From: a phage
Sequence record: OZ335964.1
Length of the DNA: 64,000 bases
Strand: one strand, 5' to 3'
Part shown: positions 1-58,151 of the stretch, piece after piece
Position numbering within the stretch: the first letter of the stretch is position 1
Layout: every line of letters starts with the position of its first letter
Position numbers and translations under genes: made by a program
Notes under the pieces: generated by a model
What the model saw: only the letters and a program-made list of their open reading frames with translations
Told to the model about the DNA's origin: nothing
Database searches by the model: none

Positions 1-739
1 CACACCCGTTATCAATAAACAATGAATCGATCGGACCTTCTAAGAAATACACTGGTTTGCTCGGATCGGCGCGTTCAAGACCATAGACCTTACTCGCTAA
101 CTCATGAGTTTTAATCGTCATATATTTGGTCTTTCCGTAATCCTTTCTCAATGCTCGCCCCTGAATGGATTCTATCTTGTTCTCACGGTTAAAGATAGGA
201 ATCACTAAACGCGGTTCAGGTTGTGGATTCTTGAAAGTATCAGCTTTAATGTGATTTGCTACCTTTTGCCATTCTCTCGTGAAATACAGAAGATCCCATT
301 TATCGTGAGGAATACAGCGATCACTAACATACTTTACTATAGGATGATTAGCCGGAAGAGTATCTAATCTCTCGCAGAAAGGCAATGTTTGCACTTTCTT
401 AATCTCCGGCTTTTCTACCTTTTTCAGTGGCTTGAACGTGGTGTTCTTGTGGTCGCCTTGTTCCTTCCGTCTCTCCATAAGCCATTCCCTGAATAGGTCC
501 GGCTTATACTGTTTGAGAAATTCACCTAACGGCTGATTGTAGTTACAGTTGAAACAACCACAACGCAAACTATCCTTATAGGTATAGATACGGAATCGCG
601 CCATTGTGCTATTCTTTTTGGAATCTCCGCAGATCGGACAACTTGCTACTAACGTAAATGAGTTAGTATGTAACCGCTTGAAATTTCGTTCGCCGTATAA
701 TGCTTTTTCGGCTATTTCATAATCTGCGTAGTAAATCAT
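1..739 (-). CDS. 61: DNA primase gp61, partial (C-terminus cut by window edge; ATG at 737-739)
   Basis: Reverse translation from 739 gives MIYYADYEIAEKALYGERNFK...CPICGDSK...CFNCNY (zinc ribbon) and ...PRLVIPIFN...YFLEGPIDSLF, matching recalled T4 gp61; lies downstream of gene 41 as in T4. Not in ORF track because open at window edge. Confidence 0.85.
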   Translation of the reverse strand, partial: MIYYADYEIAEKALYGERNFKRLHTNSFTLVASCPICGDSKKNSTMARFRIYTYKDSLRCGCFNCNYNQPLGEFLKQYKPDLFREWLMERRKEQGDHKNTTFKPLKKVEKPEIKKVQTLPFCERLDTLPANHPIVKYVSDRCIPHDKWDLLYFTREWQKVANHIKADTFKNPQPEPRLVIPIFNRENKIESIQGRALRKDYGKTKYMTIKTHELASKVYGLERADPSKPVYFLEGPIDSLFIDNGC

Positions 740-7817: not shown

Positions 7818-9331
7818 AACTCACCTCGCTTCTTCAATATTTCTTTTATTCGTTCAGCATTACGGTCACACGCCAACATCATGTTTTTGTACTGCTTACG
7901 CTGATCGAATACTTTCTTGATCTCAATCGGTATAATTCCATGAATATCTTTACGATACATCCAACCGTTAGGAGAACACGAGTATTCATCGCTAGGTCGT
8001 GGTGCTGTCTTATTAACATAATCATCAATTGGCGCGGCTTCAAACGATCCAGCGATTGTTTCCGGCGAAATGTTAACCTGTCGAATAATAGATGGGTACA
8101 GACTTGTTAAGTCAAAGCTCATCATCCAACGGTAAGCATTAGGTACTGGCTCTTTTACGAATGCGCCCGGATAAGTCTGCTTAGGCTGTATCTTATTTTC
8201 CGGTACTACTTTACCCTCAGCTTTCAGAGATCCGAAGATAATAGCATCCCATACTTTCATCGGGTTATAAACATGGTTAAATTTAATCTTTGCATAGAAA
8301 CATAGACTATACACAAGATCGATAAATCCACGCTTTTTATCAATCGCCAGCACACGATCAACGTCGCCGATGTTATAATCGATGTAAAGTTGATGGTTAT
8401 CATCACGCAATTTCTTTAACGGACCATCATAATCAACCTTACCGATTCCTGTCTCATATTCAGCAACATAATCTAATGCATATGTTGGTTGAGTCGTAAA
8501 GCTAAATTTCTTGTATAAGTCAATGTAGTCAAGGCTTTCGATCCCCATGATCGTAAATGCTTCACGCTCGTTGCCAAAATCATCCTGTGAGATTCGGGAT
8601 TTAATCTTACCGCACGGGCTTAGACGGTTAGCGGTTCTACTTCCGAACTTATTACTGATACGTTTAATGATATATGGAATATCGAATGTTTCTGTGTTCC
8701 AGCCAGTGAAACCAACGGGTCGGTTTTCCTCAAAGAATCGGATGTATTCTAACAGCAATTCATCTTCTGTATCATAGACGTTATAAACAACGCGCTCTAC
8801 AATATCAGGTCGAAGAATAGACTTTCTTGCTTCCCAGATTTCACCGTTTTTTCCTTTCAAATCAAACACAAAGAAACGATCATGTACGGAATCATAATGC
8901 GTAATTGCATCGATAGGATATTTCGCTTCTTCTGGTTTAGGAAATTCCGGTGCAGTGACCTCGATATCAACCCATGCTACACGGATTTTATTTCGGTCAT
9001 ATCGAATCTCGCCTTTATATGTATCGGACAGATAGGAGATGATAAAATCATCCATCCCTAGCGCCTCTTGCCCCATTTCCCCCATCTTTTTACGCCATTT
9101 GTTGGCCTCGTTCATAGATGGGAATTTTTTAGCAATGCAAGGCTTGCCATAGATATCTTTATAATTTGTAACCATACCAGGCGCGGCATGATGAAATAAA
9201 GTTGGCGTATATTCAACGTAACGCTCTTGTTCTTGTCCAGCATCATCAATATAACGCTCGTAGATCTTATCACCTACTCGCTCACATGACAGAAAATACA
9301 TAATATAAACTCCTTCACTTACGAAAGACAC
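7814..9331 (-). CDS. 43: DNA polymerase gp43, N-terminal fragment (3'-5' exonuclease/N-terminal domains; '43A')
   Basis: 505 aa; collinear with N-terminal ~500 aa of recalled T4 gp43 (ERYIDD...REVEY.P..F, FTGWN.E.FDIPYI, LDYIDLYKKFSFT.QP.Y.LDY, MSFDLTSLYPSIIRQVNISPETIAG). Confidence 0.9.
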   Translation of the reverse strand: MSFVSEGVYIMYFLSCERVGDKIYERYIDDAGQEQERYVEYTPTLFHHAAPGMVTNYKDIYGKPCIAKKFPSMNEANKWRKKMGEMGQEALGMDDFIISYLSDTYKGEIRYDRNKIRVAWVDIEVTAPEFPKPEEAKYPIDAITHYDSVHDRFFVFDLKGKNGEIWEARKSILRPDIVERVVYNVYDTEDELLLEYIRFFEENRPVGFTGWNTETFDIPYIIKRISNKFGSRTANRLSPCGKIKSRISQDDFGNEREAFTIMGIESLDYIDLYKKFSFTTQPTYALDYVAEYETGIGKVDYDGPLKKLRDDNHQLYIDYNIGDVDRVLAIDKKRGFIDLVYSLCFYAKIKFNHVYNPMKVWDAIIFGSLKAEGKVVPENKIQPKQTYPGAFVKEPVPNAYRWMMSFDLTSLYPSIIRQVNISPETIAGSFEAAPIDDYVNKTAPRPSDEYSCSPNGWMYRKDIHGIIPIEIKKVFDQRKQYKNMMLACDRNAERIKEILKKRGEL

Positions 9332-9383
9332 TCATTATAGGGGAATCGACTTAGTTTGTCAATACCCCTATCCCATCAGTATC

Positions 9384-9746
9384 TTATCGCCCGATCTGAT
9401 ATTTCTCGATCAGCGTCCACTCTTCTTTCTGTTTAAAAGACAGTACACGGAAATTATTAACTTCTGTAGTTTCAAAATCACTATCAATCAGGGTGCATAG
9501 ATTCCACTGCGCAAGAAGTTTTGCAATATTATTACGGCGCAATTCATCTTCCCACGTCATCTTAACACTACGACCATCTAATTTCAACAACTCCTTGAAA
9601 TGAACGATGTAATAGCGCCCCTTCTTCTGGAGAATATGACAAGACTGATACAGTGTCTTGTCTCGATTGTTGGCAATGCCGCAGCGGGTTAAAGTCTCCT
9701 TAATTTTAAGGAAGTTTTCAGGATTAATCAAATTAATTTCAATCAT
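9384..9746 (-). CDS. regA: translational repressor RegA
   Basis: 120 aa; MIEINLINPENFLKIKETLTRCGIANNRDKTLYQSCHILQKKGRYYIVHFKE... nearly collinear with recalled T4 RegA. Confidence 0.9.
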   Translation of the reverse strand: MIEINLINPENFLKIKETLTRCGIANNRDKTLYQSCHILQKKGRYYIVHFKELLKLDGRSVKMTWEDELRRNNIAKLLAQWNLCTLIDSDFETTEVNNFRVLSFKQKEEWTLIEKYQIGR

Positions 9747-14787: not shown

Positions 14788-15016
14788 TCACACATTCCAT
14801 AATATTAAATGCTAACACATCTTCATCAATGTTGTAAACACTTGCTGCCTTCACTTTAACTAATGTGTCTCTGCGATCTGGCAGCATGATCACATAATCC
14901 AGTGTCGCCGGATCATATGTCATAAAGGGATCAATGTAAATCCCTTTATTCAATGCCAGATATTCGCGAAGACCTTCTATAACCCTGTGTCTAAGGTAGG
15001 TCATCGATAGAATCAT
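14753..15016 (-). CDS. hypothetical protein (87 aa)
   Basis: Co-oriented ORF between 47 and 46. Confidence 0.4.
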   Translation of the reverse strand: MILSMTYLRHRVIEGLREYLALNKGIYIDPFMTYDPATLDYVIMLPDRRDTLVKVKAASVYNIDEDVLAFNIMECVIAEWINGKVKF

Positions 15017-24695: not shown

Positions 24696-24753
24696 GTTGT
24701 CCTCTCGTTGTTTTCGATGTGAGCATTATACATTAGCTAATCATGTTGTCAAC
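24696..24753 (-). promoter_or_regulatory. sigma70-type early promoter with conserved leader
   Basis: Minus strand TTGACA-16 nt-TATAAT, then GAGAGGACAAC-ATG. Confidence 0.6.
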
Positions 24754-24757
24754 ACCC

Positions 24758-24790
24758 CAAAACGAAAAAGCCGACCCTTTCGGATCGGCT
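24758..24790 (-). terminator. rho-independent terminator after nrdD
   Basis: Minus strand AGCCGAUCC-GAAA-GGGUCGGCU followed by UUUUUCGUUUU. Confidence 0.65.
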
Positions 24791-24795
24791 AAAAA

Positions 24796-26658
24796 TTACA
24801 TGTGCTTAACGCGGTTTACCATCTCGGAGTGTTTCCCGTGGTTAAATGGACGCAGATCAACAGATCCAAGATATCCACTAACGCGCCGGATAACATTCAT
24901 CTTTTCCAGATTGTCATTGCCGCAATCAGGACAAACAAAACCAGACTCGGTCGCTCTCATTTCCTTAGTAGATCCGCATACATGACATACATCAGAAGGA
25001 GTATTAACACCGAAGTAATGCAATTTATCCATTGCATAGTCTACTACAGTTTCAAGACCTTTCAGGTTGTTTTTCATGTCTGGGAACTCAACATAAGAGA
25101 TCATGCCACCGGACGCCAGCCAGTGATAATCTTTCTCAAAGTCGATTTTCTCAAACGGTGTGACTTTCCGGTCTACGTCAAGATGGAATGAGTTGGTGTA
25201 CCAGTCTTTATCGGTAGCACCCTTAACAATACCAAATTGCTCTCGATCCAGTCGATTAAATCGATAGCAAAGGCTCTCGGCTGGCGTACCGTAAAGACTA
25301 AACCCAAGTCCGGTTTCGTCCTTCCATTTTTCAGTATAATGACGCAAGATCTTAAGAATATGTTTACCGTATCGCTGCGCATCTTCCGAATCAAACGGAT
25401 GAACACCAAACAGGACGCTCAATACCTCATGTAAACCAATATATCCAAGAGAGATACTAGCGCGACCATCTTTCAACACTTCCAAAATTTCATCGTTTTG
25501 ATGAATACGGAAAAATGCACCTTCTGTATACAGCACAGGAGCAACATTGGCTTTAGCCCCTTTTAAAGCGTCTACGCGACTCATCAGCGCATCAAAGCAA
25601 ATAGGCATACGATTAGCTAGCTCTTGTTCGAATAGCTCAATTCTGCGCATTACAGACGCTTTACCAGCACGACGCGCGGCAATAAGAGCAATACGCGGAA
25701 GATTCAGAGTCACAACACCTAAGTTATTACGTCCGTCTAATACTTCTTCGCCTTTCTCATTATGCCACACACCCAGGAAGCTACGACAACCCATCGGGCT
25801 AACCGGAACACTAGATCCAGTGATACTACGGTTATTCTTCGCAGAGATATAATCAGGGTAAAGACGCTTACTAGAACATTCCAATGCAAGTTGCTTAATG
25901 TCGTAGTTCGGATCTTCCGGTTTAAGGTTTAATCCTTCTTCTAAGAACATCACCAGCTTAGGAAACACCGGAGTGATACCATCTTTACCTAAACCTTTAG
26001 TTCGAACGTTCAGGATCGCTTTCTGAATCAGTTTTTCTTCCCAGCTAGTACCCATACCAAAGGTTAAAGTCACAAAAGGCGTTTGACCGTTGGTAGAGAA
26101 CAAAGTGTTGATCTCATATTCCAACGCCTGATATCCGTCTAACGTTTCTTTTTCTGTCTTCTCTTGTGCATAGAGAGTATCAGCTTTGATTCCGTAGGTT
26201 TCGGCATCAGCAAGGTGTTTATGATATGTTTTCTCAACATACGGTGCTAACACCTGATCGATGTTTGCAATTGTGGTCCCGCCATATTGATGACTTGCCA
26301 CCTGTGCGATAATTTGAGCGGTTACAGCACAAGCAACGCCGATTGATTTCGGACTTTCGATTTGTGCACTACCCAATTTAAAACCATTCTCTAACATGTC
26401 TTTGAGATTAACAAGACAGCAGTTAGTAAACGGCATAGCGGGTGCATAATCCATATCATGATAATGAATATCACCGTCTACATGCGCTTTATAGATGTGC
26501 TCAGGTAACACGGTTTTAGCAATCTGTTTAGACACAGCACCAGCAATCAGATCTCGACGTGTCGGGAATGTTCGCGCGTCTTTGTTCGCGTTCTCTTTGC
26601 TTACTTCGTTTTCTTTACCCGTTGCGATCTCTGTAATGTCTTTGATTAGTTTTTCCAT
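24796..26658 (-). CDS. nrdD: anaerobic ribonucleoside-triphosphate reductase NrdD
   Basis: 620 aa; C-terminal Zn ribbon CHVCGS...CPDCG and glycyl-radical motif RVSGYLG; appears uninterrupted. Confidence 0.92.
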   Translation of the reverse strand: MEKLIKDITEIATGKENEVSKENANKDARTFPTRRDLIAGAVSKQIAKTVLPEHIYKAHVDGDIHYHDMDYAPAMPFTNCCLVNLKDMLENGFKLGSAQIESPKSIGVACAVTAQIIAQVASHQYGGTTIANIDQVLAPYVEKTYHKHLADAETYGIKADTLYAQEKTEKETLDGYQALEYEINTLFSTNGQTPFVTLTFGMGTSWEEKLIQKAILNVRTKGLGKDGITPVFPKLVMFLEEGLNLKPEDPNYDIKQLALECSSKRLYPDYISAKNNRSITGSSVPVSPMGCRSFLGVWHNEKGEEVLDGRNNLGVVTLNLPRIALIAARRAGKASVMRRIELFEQELANRMPICFDALMSRVDALKGAKANVAPVLYTEGAFFRIHQNDEILEVLKDGRASISLGYIGLHEVLSVLFGVHPFDSEDAQRYGKHILKILRHYTEKWKDETGLGFSLYGTPAESLCYRFNRLDREQFGIVKGATDKDWYTNSFHLDVDRKVTPFEKIDFEKDYHWLASGGMISYVEFPDMKNNLKGLETVVDYAMDKLHYFGVNTPSDVCHVCGSTKEMRATESGFVCPDCGNDNLEKMNVIRRVSGYLGSVDLRPFNHGKHSEMVNRVKHM

Positions 26659-35380: not shown

Positions 35381-35412
35381 TAAAAACAAAAAAGGCTACC
35401 CCTAAGGATAGC
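35381..35412 (-). terminator. rho-independent terminator
   Basis: Minus strand GGGCUAUCC-UUAGG-GGUAGCC followed by UUUUUUGUUUUU, right after stop of 35421..36221. Confidence 0.6.
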
Positions 35413-35420
35413 CCATAAAA

Positions 35421-36221
35421 TTACACGCGAGCACCGTAGATCGTGCCTACTTTATCCCAGCGAGGGGCATTGCCAGTAACAGCCTTACCAGCTGCACCAG
35501 CACCACTGGCATTATAGTTTGATGTACGAACGGCAGCACCACCAGCCGCACCAACGTTACCACCAGCACCACTCATGTTATTACCATCAACGGTTACTTT
35601 ACCACCTGCGGCGGTTAACGATGCATTACCACCATTACCACGACCACCACGACCACCTGTACCGAAAGGACGACCACCACCGCCGCCTGCAACGCCAGCT
35701 AATGTGAAGTTATAGTCTATGGACCATCCGCCGCCGCCACCGCCACCGCCAGCAATTGCACCATTATTCGTAATACGTAAGCGTGTACCGATGCCATTAT
35801 TGATCGCTGTACCCCCGGCGGTCGCACGAACTAAAGCATCTCCAGATCCACCACTAGACCCAGATCCGTTACCGCCACGACCATATACAGTGACGCCGGA
35901 ATTAATGATAAGAGTTACATATTCATTAGTTAATGAGCTAGGGAAATCCAGACACGGAACACCAGCAGAATTAGAAACAAGATCCCCGGTAATAGTAACT
36001 ACTACCGGAGTAGACCCCTGTGATTTTAGATAGTTAATCAGAGTATCTTTATTGTAGTTGTGGTTTGCACCAATGCTATAATGAATCTCTTTAGAGCGTC
36101 CGACCATCGCCGACATATACGCCGGACGACCTAAGCGAACAGCTTGCATTGCGGCGCTCATCCACCGTTGACCAGTCTCAGCAACAGCCGATGATCCTAC
36201 CCAACCTGCTTTAATTGCCAT
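35421..36221 (-). CDS. glycine-rich protein resembling T2-type gp38 tail-fibre adhesin
   Basis: 266 aa; N-terminus WVGSSAVAETGQRWMSAAMQAVRLG...IGANHNYN...VVVTITGDLVS...VYGRGGNG then poly-Gly runs (AIAGGGGGGGGW, GGGGGRPFGTGGRGG), C-terminal WDKVGTIYGARV; matches my recollection of gp38 adhesin architecture. No alignment run. Confidence 0.5.
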   Translation of the reverse strand: MAIKAGWVGSSAVAETGQRWMSAAMQAVRLGRPAYMSAMVGRSKEIHYSIGANHNYNKDTLINYLKSQGSTPVVVTITGDLVSNSAGVPCLDFPSSLTNEYVTLIINSGVTVYGRGGNGSGSSGGSGDALVRATAGGTAINNGIGTRLRITNNGAIAGGGGGGGGWSIDYNFTLAGVAGGGGGRPFGTGGRGGRGNGGNASLTAAGGKVTVDGNNMSGAGGNVGAAGGAAVRTSNYNASGAGAAGKAVTGNAPRWDKVGTIYGARV

Positions 36222-43980: not shown

Positions 43981-44319
43981 TTATTCTCCTTTCTTAAACA
44001 AATTGCGAAGCCAGTATACAAACGGGATTTCTTTAAACTTGAACTTGTCAATAGTTAATTCTTTAGTAGCAAGATGAATACCATAAGCATCATGTGTCAC
44101 GATATGCCATTTTCTATAGCCCAAATGTGAACAACCGTCTGAATCTAGGTTAATAAGAGTTTCTCGCTCACTAGGATTATTTTTCCACAATTTTGTAACC
44201 GGGTCGCACATAATTCGACCTAGCGTACCATGAATAATCTCACAACGGTAAAGTTTTCCAGCAGTGAGATAGGCGCACCCGTCATAGTCGGTATAAACAA
44301 ACACTTCTTTAACACTCAT
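43981..44319 (-). CDS. paralog family C protein (start at MSVKEV)
   Basis: ...YTDYDGCAYLTAGKLYRC...DSDGCSHLGYRKWHIV; preceded by promoter cassette and SD. Confidence 0.45.
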   Translation of the reverse strand: MSVKEVFVYTDYDGCAYLTAGKLYRCEIIHGTLGRIMCDPVTKLWKNNPSERETLINLDSDGCSHLGYRKWHIVTHDAYGIHLATKELTIDKFKFKEIPFVYWLRNLFKKGE

Positions 44320-50254: not shown

Positions 50255-50440
50255 TCAGAAATATGCAATATAGTTTGCCAGTCCTACAGAGTCATCATTC
50301 GGCATTGCTTTTACCGCCAGTTCAAACCCTGCTTCAACTTTCTGTTTAGCGGATTCTTCGTTATAACCCCAGATGACCAGAATAGCTACTACGTTTTCTT
50401 TGCTTACTGCTTTCAGTGCTTTAGTGATGCGACGTGCCAT
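50255..50440 (-). CDS. hypothetical protein (61 aa)
   Basis: Downstream of promoter cassette 50441-50517. Confidence 0.4.
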   Translation of the reverse strand: MARRITKALKAVSKENVVAILVIWGYNEESAKQKVEAGFELAVKAMPNDDSVGLANYIAYF

Positions 50441-50517
50441 AATTTGATTCTCCGTTTAAGAAAGTGTGTTTCGTTTCGATGGGTGTATTATGCTATAGGC
50501 GTGATCTGGTGTCAACA
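50441..50517 (-). promoter_or_regulatory. early promoter-hairpin-leader cassette (PeSL-like)
   Basis: TTGACA - ~17 nt - CATAAT/ATAATA - leader CAUCGAAACGAAACACAC - GGAGAATCAAA-ATG. Confidence 0.6.
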
Positions 50518-50540
50518 ACTTTTTTAAAAAATTTTAGGCA

Positions 50541-50569
50541 ATAAAAAAGCCACTCCGAAGAGTGGCTTA
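50541..50569 (-). terminator. rho-independent terminator
   Basis: AGCCACUC-UUCG-GAGUGGCU followed by UUUUUUAUU on minus strand. Confidence 0.6.
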
Positions 50570-50575
50570 TAGGGA

Positions 50576-50716
50576 AGGTAGCGAATCTTCCTTGTCTCCA
50601 ACCTGCTAGCGGCCTAGCAAGTGAATGCTTTAGCGTACCGGATCACCCCATACGCTGCAATAAATGCGGCTAGGTGACGTCCAAATCATTCTAACCGCGC
50701 TGTCTTTAGTTCACTA
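50576..50716 (-). ncRNA. candidate small structured RNA (ORF-free 140-nt interval)
   Basis: No ORF on either strand; several compact hairpins (GGAAG...CUUCC; GCUAG-gccg-CUAGC; GCGUA...UACGC; GCGGUUAG...CUAGCCGC); a terminator lies just downstream on the minus strand; T4 carries tRNAs/small stable RNAs at the syntenic e-57B interval. No tRNA T-loop signature found. Confidence 0.3.
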
Positions 50717-50935
50717 TTATTTATATCGCTTTCTCTCGCGACGTTTTTGATCTTCTTCCTTGATAGAGTTAAATGCATCAAAAAGACACATGACACTGAT
50801 AATGAACATAACCGTATTTTCTACGATATCCCACGGCTTCGCATCAGTACAGATCCCCCAAACGGTAAGAAATGCAAATAGTGCAGAAGAGATCACAAGC
50901 ATGATACTTGCTAAGATATAAAAAGTCATTTTCAT
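50717..50935 (-). CDS. small membrane protein (72 aa)
   Basis: Two TM helices, basic C-terminus. Confidence 0.4.
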   Translation of the reverse strand: MKMTFYILASIMLVISSALFAFLTVWGICTDAKPWDIVENTVMFIISVMCLFDAFNSIKEEDQKRRERKRYK

Positions 50936-51126
50936 GGTTTTACCTCAATTCTTCGATATTCATCACACATCCACGCAGTAAGCAAGAATCCCAGCACATA
51001 AGCAACAAAATACGTTAATGCTTCTTCTGGTTCTGTGCTGTGTATCATCATTAAACCAGCTAGAACGGTCTTAACAATTACATTTAAAATAATTAGCCAC
51101 GCAAATAATTTCATCGTTTGCCCCAT
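50932..51126 (-). CDS. small membrane protein (64 aa)
   Basis: Two TM helices. Confidence 0.4.
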   Translation of the reverse strand: MGQTMKLFAWLIILNVIVKTVLAGLMMIHSTEPEEALTYFVAYVLGFLLTAWMCDEYRRIEVKP

Positions 51127-51438: not shown

Positions 51439-51681
51439 TCATAGATCACAGAGCCATCTTAAAGCACCACATAAAGCGAGCAGAATACTAGGTATAAAAG
51501 AGACCAAAACAAGTTCGCAAAAATCATCTAAGGTAACACCGGAATAGCTACCTACTGTAACAACACCGATCATCAGACACAGAAAGAAAACAAATGCAAT
51601 CAGAAACAAAGTATTGCTAAACAGTTTAGTGATCATTAGACACCCCACGACGATCAATTTCAAAAACTTTTTTATCATCAA
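51439..51681 (-). CDS. small membrane protein (80 aa)
   Basis: Three hydrophobic stretches. Confidence 0.4.
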   Translation of the reverse strand: MMIKKFLKLIVVGCLMITKLFSNTLFLIAFVFFLCLMIGVVTVGSYSGVTLDDFCELVLVSFIPSILLALCGALRWLCDL

Positions 51682-51829
51682 CGAAGCATGTCACAACTGC
51701 CTCGTTGACTTCCGCAAATTGTTGTGTTACCCACTTAAGGTCAGATCGAAACAATGTTTTGTTAATAACAAATGTTTTACCGCTCTTATCCTTACCCATA
51801 AATTTTGCTTTAACCATATCCAATTCCAT
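51626..51829 (-). CDS. hypothetical protein (67 aa)
   Basis: Co-oriented ORF. Confidence 0.35.
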   Translation of the reverse strand: MELDMVKAKFMGKDKSGKTFVINKTLFRSDLKWVTQQFAEVNEAVVTCFVDDKKVFEIDRRGVSNDH

Positions 51830-54562: not shown

Positions 54563-54584
54563 TACTGATTCCTCAAATGAAAAT

Positions 54585-54592
54585 ATTTATTA
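54585..54592 (-). promoter_or_regulatory. late-promoter-like AATAAATA upstream of gene 3
   Basis: 7/8 match to TATAAATA on minus strand ~23 nt upstream of the gene 3 ATG in an AT-rich intergenic region. Confidence 0.35.
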
Positions 54593-54717
54593 ACAATTGT
54601 CGCTTCGCGACGTGCCGTAGGCACTGACTACTTTTTAACCGAAACAAATTTTTATTATTCTAAAGATCTTTCTTCGTTTTGGTTATGTTTTAACCAATAA
54701 CTATATTTTTATACAGT

Positions 54718-54725
54718 AATAAATA
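54718..54725 (+). promoter_or_regulatory. late-promoter-like AATAAATA upstream of plus-strand ORF
   Basis: 7/8 match to TATAAATA ~27 nt upstream of the ATG at 54752. Confidence 0.3.
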
Positions 54726-54751
54726 AAACGGGTACTATACGAGGACTTCTT

Positions 54752-57067: not shown

Positions 57068-57541
57068 CTATTTGTTAAGCCCTTTAAAGCCAAATACTTT
57101 CTTTAATGCATGTTCGGTGATGATCTTAAACTCCATGTTATGCTTTTGGCATAATTTCACGGCAGCTAACCATTTTTCAGTATTTTTTGTGTACGTCCAT
57201 ACTTCATGCATATATCGTTGCTTTGTCTTTGCGGTCATTCTTTTTGGCTTTTCCGGTGGCCTTGTCTCTTTAGCTGGTTTAACTTCCCATAAATGCTCCT
57301 TGCCATCATCAAACTTAACGTAAAAATCCATAAAGTATCTGTGTCTTTTTCCGTCTGTTGATGACTCATAAGGAATTACTACGGTCTCAGATCCCCATTT
57401 TGCAACTCTAGGATTGCGGTCTAGCCACTGCATGATCCATCTTTCCCAGCTTGAACGGTATGTGATCTTACGTATATCCCCTTTATACTTTTCCTTATTC
57501 TCAGGAACATACTTACCCTTATAAGTGTTAGATCCTCCCAT
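57068..57541 (-). CDS. 4: gp4-like head completion protein
   Basis: 157 aa; divergent from gene 53 across a late-promoter region as in T4. Confidence 0.6.
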   Translation of the reverse strand: MGGSNTYKGKYVPENKEKYKGDIRKITYRSSWERWIMQWLDRNPRVAKWGSETVVIPYESSTDGKRHRYFMDFYVKFDDGKEHLWEVKPAKETRPPEKPKRMTAKTKQRYMHEVWTYTKNTEKWLAAVKLCQKHNMEFKIITEHALKKVFGFKGLNK

Positions 57542-57556
57542 TTTAGCACCCTTTAT

Positions 57557-57564
57557 TATAAATA
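57557..57564 (+). promoter_or_regulatory. late promoter TATAAATA for gene 53
   Basis: Exact consensus 32 nt upstream of the gene 53 ATG; a mirror-image GATAAATA on the minus strand (57573-57580) is 32 nt upstream of gene 4. Confidence 0.55.
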
Positions 57565-57596
57565 CATAATACTATTTATCAATTGAGGGTGCTAAA

Positions 57597-58151
57597 ATGC
57601 TCTTTTCTTTCTTCCCTGCCATTGAATACAACGGCAAGATGATTACTGACATTGTGCGCAATTACCGCGCATATTTCAACGCAATAATTTCTGATTATAA
57701 CATACAAACATATTACATTCAAGGTAGTCCACGACCGGAACAAGTTGCATATGAAGTATACGGAAACCAACAACTTTATTGGATCTTGCTGATGCTTAAT
57801 GACGTATACGATCCGTTCCATGACTGGATCACCGATCAAGAGACAGCATATGAATCAGCCGAACAACGATATGCAAACGTAGGAGGAAATCAAGTATTAT
57901 ACCACGTTGATATTGACGGAAACAAGTATTGGAATCTTACCGAATATCCGAAAGGATCAAGCAATTGGTATGATAAAGGGGATATTCATCACCGTTATTT
58001 GCAGTTTCATGGTGCATTATCGGCGGTAGACACACTGGAAGATGCGATCCTCCGCAATGAGGAACGACGCAAGATCAAGATCATAGATCCTACACAAATT
58101 AAACAATTTATTAACGCATTCATTCGAGAAATGGAAAAGGCTGATGTGTAA
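57597..58151 (+). CDS. 53: baseplate wedge protein gp53
   Basis: 184 aa; first late gene after divergent promoter, immediately upstream of gene 5. Confidence 0.65.
   Translation: MLFSFFPAIEYNGKMITDIVRNYRAYFNAIISDYNIQTYYIQGSPRPEQVAYEVYGNQQLYWILLMLNDVYDPFHDWITDQETAYESAEQRYANVGGNQVLYHVDIDGNKYWNLTEYPKGSSNWYDKGDIHHRYLQFHGALSAVDTLEDAILRNEERRKIKIIDPTQIKQFINAFIREMEKADV

Follow-up and report, generated by a model that had tools for sequence, protein, structure and literature searches.

A strongly conserved, structured interval at the 3' end of the dmd early operon of RB49-like phages is most likely an undescribed small non-coding RNA

The DNA analyzed here is a stretch of 64,000 nt from a phage (sequence record OZ335964.1), referred to below as the 64-kb window, and all positions are counted from its first letter. 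The source phage is an RB49-like (Krischvirus) T4-type coliphage, as identified by megablast of positions 50400-50950, which returned 59 phage records with 95-100% identity, all of them Krischvirus (RB49, phi1, JSE, GEC-3S, and ECD7 among them). This segment holds a gene-free interval that forms the 3' end of a seven-gene early operon and is surrounded by genes that are all on the minus strand. The order of transcription is early promoter, small genes including dmd, the gene of a 72-aa protein, the interval, a terminator, another early promoter, and a DUF7421 gene, and the interval is located between the 57B homologue, at a distance of ~1.8 kb on the upstream side, and the endolysin gene. The features of the locus, as they are met by a polymerase, are the following:

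51626-51829, minus strand: dmd, in a run of small early genes upstream of the interval
50717-50935, minus strand: gene of a 72-aa predicted membrane protein, homologue of RB49ORF118c (hereafter ORF118c), the last gene of the dmd early operon
50718-50725, minus strand: perfect match to the T4-type (gp55) late promoter box, TATAAATA, overlapping the ORF118c end TAT AAA TAA
50571-50716, minus strand: gene-free interval of 146 nt, between the stop of the 72-aa gene and the intrinsic terminator
50540-50568, minus strand: intrinsic terminator including its U tract (hairpin and U6 at 50568-50547), AAGCCACUC-UUCG-GAGUGGCUU followed by the U tract
50487-50515, minus strand: sigma-70-type early promoter of the next gene, TTGACA-17-CATAAT
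50255-50440, minus strand: 61-aa DUF7421 (Pfam) gene, the next gene downstream, with its own early promoter

An earlier note on this DNA, made from the letters alone, had described an ORF-free interval, the only one of its kind in the early block, lying directly ahead of a terminator. Its coordinates were correct to within ~5 nt (the ORF stop is at 50717 and the last hairpin ends at 50573), and the intrinsic terminator at 50568-50547 on the minus strand indeed follows directly in transcription order. Positions 50441-50685 are the longest gap in the 64-kb window without an ORF of ≥ 30 aa on either strand, and the remaining ORF-free gaps are either located at the late-gene boundary (54563-54751) or window-end artefacts. 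The 3' end of ORF118c carries three in-frame stops in succession (TAA TAG TGA, 50711-50719, minus strand). On the other side, the DUF7421 protein is 72-80% identical to those encoded by coliphages and Shigella phages of ~50 kb, which we take, from this genome size, to be T1-like siphoviruses. This pattern points to a recent exchange of the DUF7421 gene between what would be unrelated phage groups; the interval does not accompany the gene into the T1-like phages (blastn matches in Krischvirus only).

Folded as RNA, the minus strand forms four hairpins (H1-H4) plus the terminator, preceded by a short leader:

50699-50712, minus strand: predicted 5' end (G50712, a start site placed by the T4 rule) and unpaired A-rich leader GAACUAAAGACAGC
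50666-50698, minus strand: H1, an 8-bp stem GCGGUUAG/CUAGCCGC with an inner 4-bp stem and a UUGGAC loop
50632-50656, minus strand: H2, a conserved 7-bp stem AGCGUAU/GUACGCU with a hypervariable loop
50597-50625, minus strand: H3, core CUUGCUAG-GCCG-CUAGCAGG (50621-50602) with a 4-bp extension
50573-50596, minus strand: an invariant purine-rich (G)ACAA linker and H4, the hairpin GGAAG-AUUCGCUAC-CUUCC at 50591-50573

The minimum free energy of the minus strand is -66.2 kcal/mol (z = -3.7), and none of 200 shuffles was equally stable, so the stacked hairpins that had been noticed in the sequence were recovered as four and are more stable than chance. Among 6386 sliding 141-nt windows of the same strand, the interval belongs to the four most stable loci (top 0.1%), and pair probabilities of the helices in the predicted 172-nt RNA range from 0.83 to 1.0 (≥ 0.99 for H1, 1.0 for H3, and ~0.85 for H4). 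The other top-folding 141-nt stretches of the minus strand are at 14810-15010, 9310-9460, 24750-24890, and 57500-57680, with GC-corrected z between -3.4 and -4.6. Three CTAG tetramers occur within 65 nt of the interval (50606, 50614, and 50670), each within a hairpin stem; in the 64-kb window as a whole, this tetramer is under-represented about two-fold, and three or more copies are present in only 0.2% of the 100-nt windows.

Known kinds of genes and RNAs were searched for in the interval. The ORFs found there are restricted to edge-overlapping ones of 25-36 aa and a single 19-aa micro-ORF starting in H1, which is frame-shifted by 1-2 nt indels in relatives. A small protein gene was rejected, as the indels in H2 shift every frame that crosses them and the variation is non-periodic and clustered in one loop. 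The ORFs of ~33-47 aa that depositors annotated across the interval (OZ034687, PP418985, PQ351811, and others) differ in frame and strand and are likely spurious calls, and in none of the records examined is the element annotated as RNA. The earlier note had suggested a retained small RNA or tRNA remnant by analogy with the T4 e-57B interval, while remarking that no convincing cloverleaf or T-loop could be found. The remark was accurate: ARAGORN predicted 0 tRNA or tmRNA genes in the whole 64-kb window, positions 50300-51000 had no match to the Rfam tRNA and tmRNA models even at E up to 10, and a T loop (UUCRANY, 7 nt, on a 5-bp stem) is absent from the interval, where the sole UUCG-containing loop outside the terminator, that of H4, fails the pattern with 9 nt and a C in place of the invariant A58. 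The published tRNA count of RB49 is likewise zero (PMC1524935). As to position, the analogy is fair, since rnaC, rnaD, and 8 tRNAs are located between 57B and e in T4. The remnant itself found no support: blastn-short against T4 rnaC (139 nt) and rnaD (119 nt) gave only chance words of 7-8 nt, a covariance model of the element had no match in T4 66000-76000 (the e-57B region), and the flanking proteins have no homologues in that region. The Rfam scan that had been proposed as a check was equally negative at gathering score (0 matches over 64 kb), and the best sub-threshold match (E up to 10, 50300-51000) was RNAI with 22.8 bits vs. the 47 required; the sub-threshold small-RNA matches were discarded, being aligned mainly on the terminator and the hairpin layout. 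Enrichment in CsrA-type GGA motifs was also set aside (4 GGA in 170 nt vs. ~2.7 expected from a rough base-frequency estimate). Similarity between H3 and type I-F CRISPR repeats was considered and dropped, as no Rfam CRISPR-DR match was found.

The interval is present in all 59 Krischvirus records with 97-100% identity and in 9 metagenome, Logan, or IMG/VR contigs, in which the flanking ORF118c protein is only 81-93% identical. The comparison sample consisted of 13 GenBank genomes together with 9 contigs (IMG/VR, JGI, ENA, or Logan), and diversity (pi) was computed on the 17 sequences with long flanks, with which a 21-sequence set agrees. For H1, H3, H4, and the terminator taken together pi is 0.004 (4 of 119 sites variable), vs. 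0.130 for codon position 3 of ORF118c (0.02 for codon position 2, a coding-type pattern), 0.050 for third codon positions of the DUF7421 gene, 0.062 for the promoter spacer, and 0.14 for the H2 region, whose loop varies more than any other segment of the locus. The diversity of H1, H3, H4, and the terminator is thus 12-30 times lower than that of neighbouring synonymous sites. Single variable positions were found in H1 (1 of 33; pi = 0.004), H3 (1 of 29), and H4 (1 of 24, a change from A-U to G-U that retains pairing), and the leader has one variable site, G, A, or deleted, at 50704. Conservation of the hairpins in related genomes had been named, next to a transcript, as a test of the small-RNA proposal, and H1, H3, and H4 proved nearly invariant there. 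The H2 loop (pi 0.14-0.16) varies by substitutions and by 1-2 nt indels; at least nine variants of it (50639-50649, minus strand) stand against an otherwise frozen background, and a GATC (Dam) site is present in some of them and lost in others.

As the hypervariable H2 loop lies inside the block, recent spread does not account for the invariance around it. Identity to a 5981-nt IMG/VR contig is mosaic along the region (0.64-1.0), and therefore high identity alone is not decisive; the selection argument, drawn from these alignments, rests on how sharply the invariant part differs in diversity from the H2 loop and from synonymous sites. By this measure, the interval is under strong purifying selection, far stronger than that on the adjacent genes, and is functional. 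A non-functional spacer or decayed gene remnant with a chance fold might be expected from the deletion scars that phage hyperplastic regions carry and from the limitation of the element to one genus, yet it would have to reconcile a diversity 12-30 times below that of neighbouring synonymous sites with a hypervariable internal loop, the fold is an outlier (z = -3.7), and no residual reading frame is left, which makes such a remnant hardly credible.

The homologues all come from this one genus, and blastn with a word size of 11 found none outside Krischvirus. The 21-mer of H3, GCTAGGCCGCTAGCAGGTTGG, occurred in Krischvirus-like contigs only and had no match in a collection with one genome per bacterial species; pattern scans of IMG/VR yielded 2 contigs, the metagenome scan 3 contigs, and the protein route 6 clusters, all 83-93% identical. 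A looser 17-mer brought in 14 further contigs, which were rejected since they have nothing else in common with the interval. No match to the interval was found among 5,426 E. coli genomes, and matches on plasmids were dismissed because they covered the terminator hairpin only. A repeat search of the 64-kb window found the interval in single copy, with the multiple places hit by megablast corresponding to the repeated early promoters, and the covariance model detected no paralogues of the element; one 17.5-bit match (35384-35560) was rejected, as it overlaps coding sequence and aligns only over a terminator. One metagenome contig (L033, OQVL01013596.1, positions 1-62, minus strand, aligned from window position 50593 onward) diverges after GGUUGGAGAC. 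Its divergent part comprises 57 nt with no match in the phage collection before the contig ends, so that H4 and the terminator are missing, which reflects either true recombination or a chimeric assembly.

The variation is also informative about the strand and the kind of molecule. On the minus strand, 795 of 796 pair cells of the helices are standard, while on the plus strand the same helices would be broken in 101 cells, among them those of five invariant G.U pairs turned into C.A (two of these G.U pairs are in H1). At variable stem positions, pairing on the minus strand is kept by substitutions: at pair 60-83 of H2, 14 sequences have G-C, 1 has the intermediate G-U, and 2 have A-U, pairs 59-84 and 62-81 alternate between A-U and G-U and between G-C and G-U, respectively, and pair 127-141 of H4 between A-U and G-U. 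Covariation with related phages, which had been named as a further check, gave pair-keeping changes on the minus strand only and a thin signal, in which a single pair is fully compensated (doubly changed) and a score as high as the observed one turned up in 8 of 500 shuffles. According to the calibration of the covariation tool, related sequences may give such a score without structure. As the structure was derived from the minus strand, we take the strand and covariation signal as supportive, not conclusive.

The same data bear on the possibility that the interval acts as DNA, through protein-binding sites or a recombination sequence tied to the PeSL cassette described below, with the hairpins as an inverted-repeat by-product. 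The motif CTAG(G)CCGC occurs twice in direct and once in inverted orientation, the three CTAG in 65 nt represent a density that 0.2% of 100-nt windows attain, recombination in this group of phages takes place at PeSL cassettes, and several assemblies break just downstream. We nevertheless consider an element of this kind very unlikely: the five invariant G.U and all variable stem positions pair as minus-strand RNA and would be mismatched in a cruciform or on the plus strand, the series from G-C through G-U to A-U is an RNA signature, and the interval is in single copy whereas PeSL promoters are repeated.

The upstream border of the interval is formed by the box TATAAATA, which spans parts of the final two codons of ORF118c and its stop. 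In T4, the late box is positioned at -13 to -6 and requires no -35 element (PMC1524935), and an AT-rich segment follows downstream of T4-type late boxes (PMC2988020). Here, the AT-rich ATAGTGAACTAAA comes directly after the box, giving the site the sequence attributes of a T4-type late promoter. The 64-kb window contains 3 copies of TATAAATA, the other two preceding the homologues of rI and gene 53 by 32 nt each. Complete RB49 contains 14, of which 12 are in sense orientation 19-44 nt upstream of a start codon (RefSeq annotation), belonging to rI, 53, 9, 18, 22, 23, 24, uvsW, 51, 31, 34, and a tail-fibre gene at 150156; that of gene 31 likewise overlaps the TAT AAA TAA stop of a preceding ORF. 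The two boxes that are not near gene starts are the site at the interval and one after gene 23. The total of 14 equals the Markov expectation (~14 under order 1-3 models), i.e., there is no depletion overall. As ~94% of RB49 is coding, yet almost no box lies within genes, the placement of the boxes is far from random.

Among the related sequences, 21 of 22 retain the box, while the codon preceding it varies (CGA, CTA, CGG). The exception is a contig (L032, MAVA01000028.1) in which a 14-nt deletion (window 50715-50728) removes the box and leaves the rest of the interval intact; the deletion also takes away the original stop, the ORF ends in ...RKLN, and the remaining interval matches variants found in other relatives. 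The site is not in the list of 17 predicted RB49 late promoters published in 2006. We infer from position and sequence that the box may well be active as a late promoter, and by analogy with T4 transcription would start at G50712, 6 nt after it. The only other orphan TATAAATA of RB49, after the gene 23 terminator and outside the window, is found at RB49 94996-95368, where ~365 nt without an ORF > 40 aa and without an Rfam match precede the small gene RB49p162; this segment might belong to a late transcript with a long leader or yield another late RNA that is non-coding.

At the downstream border, the terminator has the make-up of an intrinsic terminator (a 9-bp stem with 5 G-C pairs, a UUCG loop, and U6), is invariant in relatives, and is annotated as a terminator in the GenBank records of GEC-3S and G5211. 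Its TransTerm confidence in RB49 is 100 (PMC1524935). Together, the terminator (50568-50547) and the promoter (50515-50487) are a PeSL-type terminator/promoter composite (for the concept see PMC4122927), the promoter part of which belongs to repeat families present in the window. Several contigs (loci L002 and L036-L039) end 170-250 nt past ORF118c, between the terminator and the repeated PeSL promoter (50480-50540), which looks like assembly breakage at the repeat.

A promoter, a 170-nt structured leader, a terminator, and genes in this order form a layout typical of attenuators and of lambda pR'-tR' (PMC7547250), and the interval might then be the leader of a late transcript that controls read-through of the terminator into the DUF7421 cluster in a riboswitch- or antiterminator-like manner. 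When the 3' arm of the terminator was removed or blocked, however, H1-H4 stayed the same and only weak pairing with the leader appeared, with no stable competitor; no Rfam riboswitch or leader was matched, and the DUF7421 gene has its own early promoter. Such a control of read-through is accordingly rated as improbable.

Taken together, the interval is most likely an undescribed small non-coding RNA and not a tRNA remnant. With moderate confidence, and on the basis of sequence features, we propose that it specifies a late small RNA of ~170 nt (~50712-50541) which is also the 3' UTR of the early dmd operon. In the early phase, the interval is certainly read as part of the operon transcript, where it follows dmd and the gene of the 72-aa membrane protein as the untranslated 3' end. 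Later, RNA polymerase with gp55 would recognise the TATAAATA box at the ORF118c stop, transcription would begin near G50712 and end in the U tract of the terminator (~50541-50543), and the product would be a discrete RNA of ~170 nt with four hairpins, a terminator hairpin, and a U tail, sharing its terminator with the early operon mRNA. This RNA may act in trans via sequence-specific contacts, either base pairing with RNA or specific protein binding. Unpaired linkers and loops, e.g., GGUUGGAGACAA or AUUCGCUAC in H4, have remained just as invariant as the paired stems, which favours a partner that recognises the sequence over a passive role as 3' stabiliser. The candidate small RNA of the earlier note is in this way supported by selection, pairing, the terminator, and the late box, the last of which that note had not mentioned, and what falls away is its derivation from T4 RNAs or tRNAs; late firing of the promoter, accumulation of a discrete RNA, and action in trans are what we infer from the same features. 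In the RB49 genome, stretches complementary to the element reach at most 12 nt when terminators are set aside, a length at chance level (one such stretch pairs the H4 loop with the gene 23 sense strand at 93910, another lies at 44218), and a search for a partner covarying with the H2 loop gave nothing beyond 9-10-mers.

A different function of the same RNA segment would be purely in cis, as a 3' UTR element of the dmd operon that sets the lifetime of the upstream mRNA by serving as an exonuclease barrier or processing site. The position at the 3' end of a seven-gene early operon fits this, as do the invariant linker and the presence of RegB among the proteins encoded by RB49, and in one variant RegB could cut the single-stranded GGAG and A-rich stretch (GGAGACAAGGA), detach the module of H4 and terminator, and thereby time the decay of the early message. 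In T4, RegB cleaves early transcripts at GG*AG between genes, with strong sites of the form GG*AGRAYARAA (PMC3014915); in the interval, GGAG is followed by ACAAGGA, so that 4 of 7 consensus positions are matched. This consensus match is weak, and the GGAG (50599-50596, minus strand) lies partly within the H3 extension, where its GGA is partly paired, and structure protects against RegB (PMC3014915). Moreover, neither a stabiliser nor a cleavage site would explain invariant loops and stems over ~120 nt, and the late promoter box is left without a role, for which reasons we regard an exclusively cis-acting element as rather unlikely.

The proposed late small RNA permits a further, more speculative step, which we put forward tentatively as one possibility: among T4-type phages, it would be the first case of a regulatory small RNA under a gp55 late promoter. 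The RNA would then be made in bulk late and also supplied early as an mRNA tail, the ultra-conserved H1, H3, and H4 would be where a factor or RNA of the host or phage binds, and the H2 loop, as a determinant of specificity or evasion, would evolve rapidly, e.g., as part of an arms race against host defences that sense RNA. Independently of this step, the element is strongly selected, in single copy, bounded by a promoter motif and a terminator, and found in all sequenced members of the genus, some of which, e.g., phi1, were isolated for or used in phage therapy (PMC2839356). With it, one can also ask if regulatory RNAs arise from late-promoter boxes that lie outside late genes.

Several known systems share part of this organization. 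Like rnaC and rnaD of T4 (species 1 and 2; PMC3014915), the element would be a small non-coding RNA encoded downstream of 57B, toward the lysis gene, but it has neither sequence similarity nor a covariance-model match to them, and the flanking genes are not homologous. Furthermore, a tRNA-like T arm closes T4 rnaC, and it is a tRNA cluster transcript from which the two T4 RNAs are processed, whereas RB49-like phages, unlike T4, have no tRNA genes. The lambda 6S RNA from pR'-tR' and StxS of Shiga-toxin phages (PMC7547250) resemble the element in having a late promoter, a terminator within ~200 nt, and as product a short RNA, which can have a regulatory role. They are by-products of Q-dependent antitermination upstream of a late operon; for the element, in contrast, no antiterminator is known, the genes downstream are early ones driven by a promoter of their own, and the sequences are unrelated. 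With the PeSL cassettes of RB49-like phages (PMC2839356, PMC4122927), the locus has in common that the adjacent terminator and early promoter form one, and the interval is not mentioned in these papers. Unlike the cassettes, the 146-nt interval is in single copy and lies outside the repeated cassette. The enterobacterial DapZ and MicL are small RNAs derived from 3' UTRs and have their own promoter inside the upstream gene. The promoter of the element differs from theirs in being a phage gp55-type late box and not a host sigma-factor promoter. Traits in common would be a promoter overlapping the 3' part of the preceding coding sequence, a terminator shared with the mRNA, a length of ~100-200 nt, hairpins, and the U tail of the terminator, and by analogy the layout of the proposed RNA would be closest to that of 3'-UTR-derived small RNAs with their own promoter in the upstream gene.
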